Made by a program: the position numbers and the translations under genes. A stretch of 5,407 nucleotides of DNA from a virus (lineage: Duplodnaviria; Heunggongvirae; Uroviricota; Caudoviricetes). The notes beneath the pieces are model-generated. The model made no database searches, was not told the DNA's origin, and saw nothing but the letters and a program-made list of their open reading frames with translations. Shown one piece after another: positions 1,804 through 3,473 of the stretch. Numbering within the stretch: position 1 is the stretch's first letter; every line of letters starts with the position of its first letter. Location: positions 1 through 5,407 of IMG/VR virus record IMGVR_UViG_2703718851_000002. One strand, given 5' to 3'.

Positions 1804-2829
1804 TTAAACGCTCGCTACATTATACCAGGTGCCATTTATATACTTTTGAACGGGTCTGTAATAAACGCCAGCTATATTATCGGCAGAGTTGGACCCTGTA
1901 TCCTGAACATTAATACCAGACAATACATGACCTGACGGGCACTGGAAATTCCATGTTTGCCAGTTGTTCACTCCATAATATTGCTGTGAACCAAGTCGAA
2001 CATCTTTCACATATCTGGAATCAAAATTGCCATAGTTGCCGGGAATAACTTGCGAGCCGCAAAGCCAGTTCCCGTTATTATCCATGTACGCCTGACCATC
2101 GGTGCCATTGGCTGTCCTTGAGTTATTAATCATGTAGATGCCAAATTGCTTATTTCCCAGCCCACCAATCATAAATTTGCGATCAGCATGGTCCTGACGA
2201 AGTAATGCCTGTGCACCATCGGTGGATACCGCATTGCGTCCCAAAATAACATTCTGGTCACGCATATGAATCCACATGCCGGTACTACTGTTAATTGCAA
2301 AACGGTTTGCAAATATATCCCCTGTAACATCAAGACCATGCCCCATGCTTATCCGACCAGTTCTAAGATTAAGCGTAAAGGGGCGTAGTGGCCCTATATC
2401 ACCATTTTCTCCCTCATTCTCTCGTGTCGGGATGATATGCAGGCATTCTTCAGAACGGCGAAAAATGGCACCAAAAGATGAATTAAATATTCTCAGTGCA
2501 TTGACTGTCGATATTTTTACTTCACTGCTGAAAAGGGCTTTAACAAGAACAGACAAAGCATCCCATTTAAGATTCATCAGGTCTTTTGTTGTGGTGCTTT
2601 GTTTGCTTCTCCATTTGAAATATTCATTGCCGTTGTCGCCTGTTTCAAACCACATGTATGAATCAGTGTCGCTGTCGGCATCATTTTTAAATCCAATCTT
2701 TGCCCAGTCAGTATTTCGAATCCAGGCAAGGATTGAGTCGTTTTCAAAAGTAAGCCCACCGGATAAGGTATCGCCTGTCTTTTGAACGGCGTTACCAGCC
2801 CTGTTTACCGTTTCCTGTAAACCGAGGTT
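1804..2829 (-). CDS. Tail-fibre variable C-terminal module (Sv/Sv' of the invertible G segment), orphaned from its constant 5' part
   Basis: Minus-strand frame is open from 2829 to TAA at 1804..1806 ([30 protein letters not shown]..), with the upstream stop at 2830..2832 lying inside the gix site. It contains the [10 protein letters not shown] motif typical of the conserved/variable hinge of P2 H / Mu S-type fibres and is Gly/Asn/Trp/Tyr-rich like receptor-binding tips. The ATG-initiated sub-ORF is 1804..2655 in the supplied track. Confidence 0.8.
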
Positions 2830-2837
2830 TTAGATAA
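2812..2837. repeat. gix recombination site (right boundary of the G segment), single copy
   Basis: TTCCTGTAAACCGAGGTTTTAGATAA is one mismatch from the Mu gix core TTCCTGTAAACCGAGGTTTTGGATAA as recalled. It lies just upstream of gin and at the 5' end of the fibre variable-module frame. I found no inverted second copy in the window. Confidence 0.8.
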
Positions 2838-2891
2838 TGGTTGTTTCCGGCCTGCATGGCATGATTTGCGCTTTTAAACGGGAGATCCAGA

Positions 2892-3473
2892 GTGCTGATT
2901 GGCTATGTAAGGGTATCAACAAATGACCAGAATACAGACCTGCAACGAAACGCTCTTGTTTGTGCAGGATGTGAACAAATATTTGAAGATAAATTAAGCG
3001 GGACAAAGACAGACCGACCGGGATTAAAACGCGCTTTAAAGCGCCTTCAAAAAGGTGACACGCTGGTTGTCTGGAAACTGGATCGCCTCGGGCGAAGCAT
3101 GAAACATCTGATTTCTCTCGTCGGGGAACTACGGGAGCGAGGGATTAATTTTCGCAGTCTGACCGACAGCATAGACACATCTTCTCCAATGGGGCGTTTT
3201 TTCTTCCACGTTATGGGTGCCCTGGCTGAAATGGAACGAGAACTAATCATCGAGCGAACGATGGCTGGACTTGCTGCCGCCAGAAATAAAGGCCGTATTG
3301 GTGGGCGACCACCTAAACTAACCAAAGCGGAATGGGAGCAGGCCGGGCGTTTATTAGCACAAGGAATCCCCCGCAAGCAGGTTGCATTGATCTACGATGT
3401 GGCCCTGTCAACTCTGTATAAAAAACACCCCGCGAAACGAGCGCATATAGAAAACGACGATCGAATCAATTAA
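2892..3473 (+). CDS. gin: Gin DNA invertase (serine recombinase, resolvase/invertase family)
   Basis: 193 aa MLIGYVRVSTNDQNTDLQRNAL..DRLGRS..; essentially the Mu Gin sequence as I recall it, with the catalytic Ser in the VRVSTNDQ motif and a C-terminal HTH. GTG start at 2892 preceded by GGAG at 2881..2884. In Mu the Fis-dependent enhancer lies inside the 5' part of gin; not mapped here. Confidence 0.95.
   Translation: MLIGYVRVSTNDQNTDLQRNALVCAGCEQIFEDKLSGTKTDRPGLKRALKRLQKGDTLVVWKLDRLGRSMKHLISLVGELRERGINFRSLTDSIDTSSPMGRFFFHVMGALAEMERELIIERTMAGLAAARNKGRIGGRPPKLTKAEWEQAGRLLAQGIPRKQVALIYDVALSTLYKKHPAKRAHIENDDRIN

Follow-up and report, generated by a model that had tools for sequence, protein, structure and literature searches.

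What can an intact Gin invertase still do when it is left with a single gix site and only part of a G segment? This question is raised by a stretch of viral DNA of 5,407 nucleotides (the whole of which we refer to as the window), in which a preliminary description had noticed a full-length gin next to a lone gix. According to that description, the constant part of the S fibre gene, the other variable module, and the second gix were missing, leaving Gin with no substrate in cis but with the possibility of acting in trans on related sites elsewhere. We examined the protein, the site, the element that carries them, and the chromosome in which this element resides.

The gin ORF (2892–3473, plus strand, GTG start) encodes an intact serine DNA invertase of 193 aa, with the Pfam domains Resolvase and HTH_7. 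It is indeed full length, and 192 of its 193 residues (99%) are identical to those of Mu Gin, the sole change being R39K, which is also found in the Gin of the intact phage PhiR68_1. The protein aligns end to end with the structures PDB 3UJ3 and 4M6F. Ser9, which is the nucleophile of Gin (PMC3575834), is present, at a position where 3UJ3 carries the engineered S9A substitution, and no inactivating substitutions were found in the catalytic serine region. The catalytic domain matches Pfam Resolvase with an E value of 2e-50 and has the features of the invertase subfamily, while the DNA-binding domain matches HTH_7 over residues 138–181, as well as Hin in 1HCR. Together with its close kinship to a characterised invertase, these findings identify the protein, as far as sequence can tell, as Gin, a member of the Gin/Hin/Cin/Pin subfamily in every respect considered.

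We then asked whether Gin might still be produced. The spacer between gix and gin is identical to that of D108. Compared with Mu, the first ~220 nt of gin contain four differences, of which the two in codons 37 and 39 also occur in PhiR68_1; compared with PhiR68_1, there are two, at other positions. The Fis-dependent enhancer of Mu lies within the 5' ~200 nt of gin. Scanning the region upstream of gin for the sigma-70 consensus revealed no promoter-like site, and the same was true of the identical region in D108. The promoter of Mu gin is weak. Induced Mu lysates contain both orientations of the G segment, which implies that Gin is active in lysogens (PMC4406740). Since gin and its upstream DNA are as in working phages, and since G inversion occurs in Mu lysogens, N61 probably still produces Gin, at the low constitutive level that is usual for Mu prophages.

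Inversion requires more than the enzyme. In the invertasome, two recombinase-bound sites and a Fis-bound enhancer come together at a branch point of a single supercoiled DNA molecule (PMC3798978). As had been noted, the window contains one gix, at 2812–2837 (plus strand), with the sequence TTCCTGTAAACCGAGGTTTTAGATAA, in which a GA core separates the half-sites TTCCTGTAAACC and GGTTTTAGATAA. This is the sole match in the window when up to three mismatches are allowed, with no match in 200 shuffles. It is identical to the right, gin-proximal gix of D108 and SfMu and is one base off that of Mu (A for G). A second, inverted gix-like site was looked for by a half-site scoring scan and by pattern searches, but none was found in the element, in the rest of the window, or within the 12 kb flanking it on each side. 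In positive controls, the same half-site scan identified exactly two sites in each of the intact relatives Mu, D108, SfMu, and PhiR68_1, and exactly two in each of two P2/186-type cassettes.

The rest of the G segment is depleted as well. An invertible cassette comprises 1) two inverted crossover sites, 2) a constant 5' fibre part, and 3) two variable modules with their assembly genes. At this locus there is a single site, upstream of which there is a stop followed by gin on the other strand, and only one module is left, with a truncated U'. This module (1804–2829, minus strand) is a variable C-terminal fibre module in the S'v position, with a match to Pfam Gp34_trimer and 341 open codons that lack a constant N-terminal part; like the whole stretch 1489–2800, it is 95% identical to the gin-adjacent module of Shigella phage SfMu. 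Translation of the minus strand gave I-I-stop-N-L-G-L-Q-E-T-V-N, in which the stop (TAA) lies inside the outer gix half-site. The frame thus opens just after a stop inside gix, as originally described, and its 341 open codons end at a stop at 1804–1806, a layout that is identical in SfMu. The S'v frame cannot make a fibre, because it lacks the constant S part to which it would ordinarily be joined at gix. The absence of the constant S part, of the other variable module, and of the second gix is supported by annotation, translation, and site scans. In particular, PGAP annotated a truncated tail fibre assembly gene, a fibre fragment, a recombinase, com, and mom, but no constant S part. The statement that half a G segment is left has to be refined, however: one fibre module is kept, but this half is itself incomplete, because U' is cut at ~104 of its 177 codons. 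With only one GA-core site, the locus cannot invert. It is therefore frozen, and Gin has no substrate in cis, as had been proposed.

When compared with E. coli genomes, the window was found to be 100% identical to positions 4,064,922–4,070,313 of strain N61 (NZ_AP028880.1), a bovine mastitis isolate from Japan whose record is a closed complete chromosome. N61 was alone among 5,426 complete E. coli genomes in covering at least 80% of the window. The Mu-like element, which is 4,916 bp long (82–4997 in the window) and has both ends intact, splits a single gene, yjiT, in the hsd-mcr region; in the PGAP annotation, one half of yjiT lies on either side of the element. It is bordered by two copies of the pentamer GGGAA, at 77–81 (left copy, in yjiT, read directly from the sequence) and 4998–5002 (right copy), i.e., by a 5-bp target-site duplication such as Mu transposition makes. 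The Mu-type left end (attL, 82–260, plus strand), which includes transposase-binding sites, begins with TGTATTGATTCACTTGAAGTACG; it is 99.8% identical to bases 8–1414 of PhiR68_1 and 97% identical to the left end of Mu. The Mu-type right end (attR, 4912–4997, plus strand) terminates in GCGCCGCTTCA and is 99.7% identical to PhiR68_1 through the right terminus of this phage. In the annotation of D108, MuA-binding sites are found at positions equivalent to both ends of the element. The element thus displays the Mu-type termini with transposase-binding sites and the 5-bp GGGAA duplication of a Mu-like prophage, but it lacks functional A and B, since A ends after 44 codons and B is gone. No lysis, head, or tail genes are present in its 4,916 bp, as compared to the 37,128 bp of PhiR68_1.

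The parentage of the element was apparent from its two arms. The left arm (82–1488) and the right arm (2800–4997) are 99.8 and 99.7% identical to PhiR68_1, respectively, and the relationship switches from PhiR68_1 type to SfMu type at the gix boundary. The other border of the SfMu-type segment is the deletion junction. When the window was aligned jointly with A of PhiR68_1 and U' of SfMu, this junction proved to be marked by a trinucleotide, TAA, common to both parents (1486–1488). The alignment with PhiR68_1 A shows identity up to 1488 and no relation beyond, while fibre-side matches in other E. coli genomes start at 1486. At the junction, codon 44 of A is joined to codon ~104 of U', with a loss of ~32.2 kb that comprised A from codon 45, B, the early region, the activator gene C, and the lysis, head, and tail genes, as well as the constant S part, gixL, the expressed Sv-U module, and the end of U'. 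D108 was considered as a source of the left arm, but its identity is only ~70–80%, and PhiR68_1 is the true relative; Mu and D108 were ruled out by sequence comparison as the source of the immunity region. We also considered a deletion mediated by Gin and rejected it because there is no gix-like sequence at or near the junction. Since the junction is unlike gix, the deletion is best explained by illegitimate recombination rather than by a Gin event.

Viewed as a whole, which goes beyond what had been described before, the element appears as a Mu-like prophage cut to 4.9 kb by one internal deletion. On the left side of the junction, it retains an intact repressor gene c of the PhiR68_1 immunity type (420–935, minus strand, 171 aa; annotated by PGAP, Pfam HTH_Tnp_Mu_1 with an E value of 2e-22, "repressor" in PhiR68_1), an intact ner (1135–1353, plus strand; PGAP CDS, Pfam HTH_35, Ner in PhiR68_1), and the first 44 codons of transposase gene A (1356–1488, plus strand), as defined by alignment with PhiR68_1 A. 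The truncated A frame continues for 14 further codons into antisense U', to a stop at 1532, and covers only positions 1–34 of the 134-position Mu DNA-binding domain in Pfam. On the right side, the tail-fibre assembly gene U' (1489–1802, minus strand) has lost the part encoding its C terminus and is listed by PGAP as a pseudogene "missing C-terminus"; it is ~95% identical to SfMu and matches only profile positions 2–54 of 131 of Pfam Caudo_TAP. Beyond the fibre module, gix, and gin, there are com (3568–3756, plus strand; PGAP, Pfam Zn_ribbon_Com), the DNA modification gene mom (3677–4414, plus strand; PGAP, Pfam Mom with an E value of 3e-75), and a homologue of D108 gene 56 (4459–4905, plus strand, 148 aa). 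The latter is annotated by PGAP, corresponds to a "D108-specific protein" in D108 and PhiR68_1, and has an N terminus resembling a signal peptide; it has no Pfam match and no assigned role. As for the functions that might persist, mom should be silent, its activator gene C having been lost in the deletion, and the c repressor should provide immunity against PhiR68_1-type phages. The remnant has kept both ends, but its mobilisation would require A and B from another source.

We propose the following history. A full-length phage with the immunity of PhiR68_1 and an SfMu-type fibre module would have inserted into yjiT of N61, producing the 5-bp duplication. A single illegitimate recombination at the 3-bp TAA microhomology would then have removed ~32.2 kb, leaving both ends, c, ner, a silent S'v, a truncated U', one gix, gin, com, mom, and gene 56. 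Given the 99.7–99.8% identity to a living phage, the deletion appears to be recent, so that intact genes would be expected even without selection.

Alternatively, the deletion might have preceded the insertion, with a 4.9-kb "mini-Mu" possessing both ends being put into yjiT by A and B from a helper phage. An internally deleted Mu with both ends transposes when A and B are given in trans, as is known from laboratory mini-Mu elements, and the intact ends and 5-bp duplication of the N61 element are in keeping with such an arrival. However, no other Mu-like sequence was detected in N61, the only extra place found by megablast with the whole window being a P2-type fibre gene, and no second copy of the remnant was found in N61 or in other genomes, which makes this scenario improbable. 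Deletion in place and mini-Mu arrival would give the same final structure, with the same consequences for Gin.

The Gin of the remnant has to be considered together with the other invertases and sites of N61. The 26-bp sites were scored individually over ~0.72 Mb of the 4.78-Mb chromosome, while elsewhere detection relied on flanking fibre or invertase homology. Within this scope, the search for other sites and homologues led to a 186-type invertase with pix-type sites, pinQ, and a decayed gix. In BLAST place counts, the chromosome showed exactly one more gin-like sequence (blastn, at roughly at least 65–70% identity) and exactly one more fibre-like sequence (megablast), which are not adjacent to each other. 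The gin-like gene belongs to a 186-type prophage that appears to be complete and lies between ybjL and rcdA. It encodes an invertase of 188 aa with 76% identity to Gin and adjoins a 1.86-kb cassette (at about 3,068,300–3,070,180 of the N61 record) that contains an alternative fibre C terminus and an assembly gene. This cassette is bounded by two inverted sites, TTTTCATAAACG-TT-GGTTTGGGAGAA and TTCTCCCAAACC-AA-GGTATGCGAGAA, the first of which includes, without mismatch, the 16-bp repeat of the P segment of e14, TTGGTTTGGGAGAAGG, as quoted in PMC12529663.

The fibre-like sequence is gene H of another prophage, of P2 type, located between pflB and pflA. This prophage is defective, with its head genes lost and its sheath gene frameshifted, and it has no invertase. 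Its H gene holds a decayed gix, TTCCTGTAAACC-GA-GATATTCGATAA, in which the left half and the GA core are the same as in the window, while three bases of the right half are mismatched, two of which fall in the conserved inner GGTTT. We rejected this site as a partner for the lone gix on account of its three mismatches, its distance of 1.09 Mb, and its direct orientation; since it is in direct orientation at 1.09 Mb, the product of recombination could only be a lethal deletion. In all the N61 fibres that were compared, the site coincides with the codons of a conserved hinge peptide (LGLQE or LGLGE), which explains why decayed sites persist in fibre genes that are unable to invert. The location of gix and pix on the fibre hinge peptide also accounts for the exchange of fibre modules at exactly that boundary.

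The annotation of N61 was also read at other candidate sites. A Qin prophage with pinQ is present, and its PinQ is 36% identical to Gin, with no match at the DNA level. The lambdoid prophage at potB/potC has neither an invertase nor similarity to the window, and a pinH-like fragment at ileY gave no DNA match. N61 lacks e14 at icd and Rac at ttcA. Further locations in N61 are empty: fieF-cpxP, which is occupied by a P2-like prophage in a bovine relative, the P2 site locI at yegQ/yegR, and the wrbA, torS/T, and serT/yccA sites.

What, then, might Gin act on in trans? Gin-family inversion needs matching central dinucleotides in both sites. Because of this core-matching rule, the lone GA-core gix cannot productively recombine with AA-core pix sites. 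Action of Gin on a complete pair of pix-type sites is another matter, since cross-reactivity within the Gin/Pin family is established. PinE complements Mu gin and Fin of Fels-2 flips the Hin segment (PMC12529663 and references cited there), while PinQ, PinR, and PinE flip the e14 P segment (PMC12529663). The pix-type cassette of the 186-type prophage could thus be a substrate for Gin in trans, and it would be the only realistic one in the N61 chromosome. This gives the earlier suggestion of trans action on pix-type sites a concrete basis, in that a candidate cassette with the exact e14 repeat is there, although e14 itself is absent. Because an invertase comes with the cassette itself, and N61 has PinQ besides, Gin would amount to no more than a redundant second or third enzyme flipping this cassette.

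A different reading is that the remnant has been kept because it is useful, with Gin regulating the 186-type fibre cassette in trans and c conferring immunity to related Mu-like phages; flipping might even generate adsorption-blocking fibre chimeras, as reported for PinQ and StfE2. Consistent with this, the retained genes are all intact, a pix-type cassette with the exact e14 repeat occurs in the same genome, and invertases of decayed prophages have been reported to act on another prophage, with consequences for phage defence (PMC12529663). However, of 5,426 complete E. coli genomes only N61 has the structure, with no sign of selection maintaining it, and the near-identity to a living phage, which points to a recent deletion, means that intact genes are expected anyway. 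Moreover, the invertase of the 186-type prophage and pinQ would make Gin redundant, and the retained set is simply what fell outside one deletion. We therefore consider it very unlikely that the remnant is maintained for its usefulness. Equally hard to credit is the specific proposal that the orphan Gin, together with the 186-type invertase and PinQ, controls flipping of the 186-type cassette and that the remnant thereby affects host range or adsorption-blocking defence. Were it true, Gin would be a trans-acting switch in N61, accompanied by repressor-based superinfection immunity, and the "several recombinases, one cassette" scheme of PinQ, PinR, and PinE would extend to a Mu-derived enzyme. 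Finally, collapse of a full-length N61 prophage by the assembler is extremely unlikely, because the junction joins two unique, nonhomologous sequences with 3 bp in common, with no collapsible repeat, in a record that is a closed complete chromosome.

Taken together, these findings make it highly probable that a Mu-like prophage underwent one internal deletion, which left a frozen locus and a Gin that has no substrate in cis and would be redundant in trans. The locus is an ordinary, strain-specific product of prophage decay, with close published precedents in PinQ, PinR, and Fin. It offers a clean and well-dated case in which one microhomology deletion strands a recombinase without its substrate. 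N61 has a natural "Gin plus single gix" genotype next to a pix-type cassette with its own invertase and PinQ. The strain is thus suited to the study of redundancy and cross-talk between prophage invertases, an idea lately raised for PinQ and PinR.

How does this remnant compare to known systems? It is most alike in sequence to the G-segment system of Mu, D108, SfMu, and PhiR68_1, with which it shares a 99% identical Gin, an identical or nearly identical gix core, spacer, and 5' gin, and the gene order S'v-gix-gin-com-mom-right end. It differs in having one gix, in lacking the constant S part, gixL, and Sv-U, in its truncated U', and in its size of 4.9 kb. The P segment of e14 with PinE and the P2/186-type cassettes resemble it in their family of crossover sites, placed on the fibre hinge peptide, and in their invertase family, but they have two inverted sites with AA/TT cores, whereas the remnant has a single GA-core site. 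In functional terms, the remnant comes closest to PinQ (Qin) and PinR (Rac) of K-12 and to Fin of Fels-2. These are also serine invertases in decayed or foreign prophages, which have no adjacent cassette of their own or act elsewhere too, and which are reported to invert either the P segment of e14 or the H segment of Hin (PMC12529663); an analogous pix-type target exists in N61. PinQ is only 36% identical to Gin, whereas the protein of the remnant is, by all appearances, Gin itself. Experiments have demonstrated trans action of PinQ, PinR, and Fin, whereas for the remnant Gin it is deduced. The structural counterpart is the laboratory mini-Mu, in which both ends, c, and ner are likewise kept while A and B are lost or truncated. 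In contrast to these constructs, the remnant appears to have arisen by a natural microhomology deletion in a wild bovine isolate, and it carries a gin-com-mom right arm and no engineered markers.

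Sequence comparison showed that the Mu-like remnant in the yjiT gene of Escherichia coli N61 is a mosaic. While both of its arms (82-1488 and 2800-4997) are PhiR68_1-like, with 99.7-99.8% identity, the fibre module between them (1489-2800) is SfMu-like at 95%, versus only ~77% for Mu S/U. Since the relationship changes from SfMu-like to PhiR68_1-like at the boundary formed by gix, the Gin crossover site, this pattern suggests that the crossover site is where phages swap fibre modules.

The left site of intact phages, gixL, reads TTATCCAAAACG-TC-GG... in all three of those compared (D108, SfMu, and PhiR68_1), with a G replacing the C beside the core. 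This 1-bp asymmetry was reportedly proposed in the SfMu paper as a possible hindrance to inversion. As several phages have it in common, it is probably tolerated.

The deletion that produced the remnant also created two chimeric ORFs, one on the plus strand (1356-1532), where the reading frame passes from 44 codons of A into 14 antisense codons of U', and the other on the minus strand (1452-1802), where 104 codons of U' run on into 12 antisense codons of A. Both are probably by-products without meaning. At the right end, the remnant carries a homologue of D108 gene 56 (4459-4905, 148 aa), a gene kept at the Mu right end in D108 and PhiR68_1. No Pfam family was found for this 148-aa protein, and its N-terminus resembles a signal peptide (MKKSKLLISTIISLFVLTASSVNHAQ); it may be the product of an accessory gene, possibly secreted or located in the envelope. 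As for the flanks (L001 5329-12081 and 16961-19897, on the N61 chromosome), the insertion in yjiT falls inside the hsd-symE-mcrBC "immigration control" region, with a 6.3-kb DEAD/DEAH helicase gene adjoining the prophage, and the two yjiT halves are named differently by PGAP ("STY4851/ECs_5259 family" and "yjiT").

The other mobile elements of N61 include a P4-like satellite at ssrA and a Qin prophage (chromosomal stretches L016 29751-39359 and L013 11454-38392). In the Qin prophage, pinQ adjoins tfaQ and a fibre fragment, so Qin is a second N61 invertase with no recognised cassette alongside. A defective P2-type prophage, which has no invertase, contains a decayed gix, TTCCTGTAAACCGAGATATTCGATAA, in its H fibre gene (L023 22705-22730, i.e., 2,980,705-2,980,730 of the N61 record), with three mismatches and a retained GA core. 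Since this stretch codes for a conserved hinge peptide, the "site" persists as coding sequence. Finally, the 186-type prophage flanked by ybjL and rcdA encodes a Gin-family invertase 76% identical to Gin, together with a 1.86-kb invertible fibre cassette (both within L020 15673-18183, about 3,067,673-3,070,183 of the N61 record). Although e14 is absent from N61, the sites of this cassette are of the e14 pix type, and the 16-bp repeat of the e14 P segment occurs without any change in one of them.
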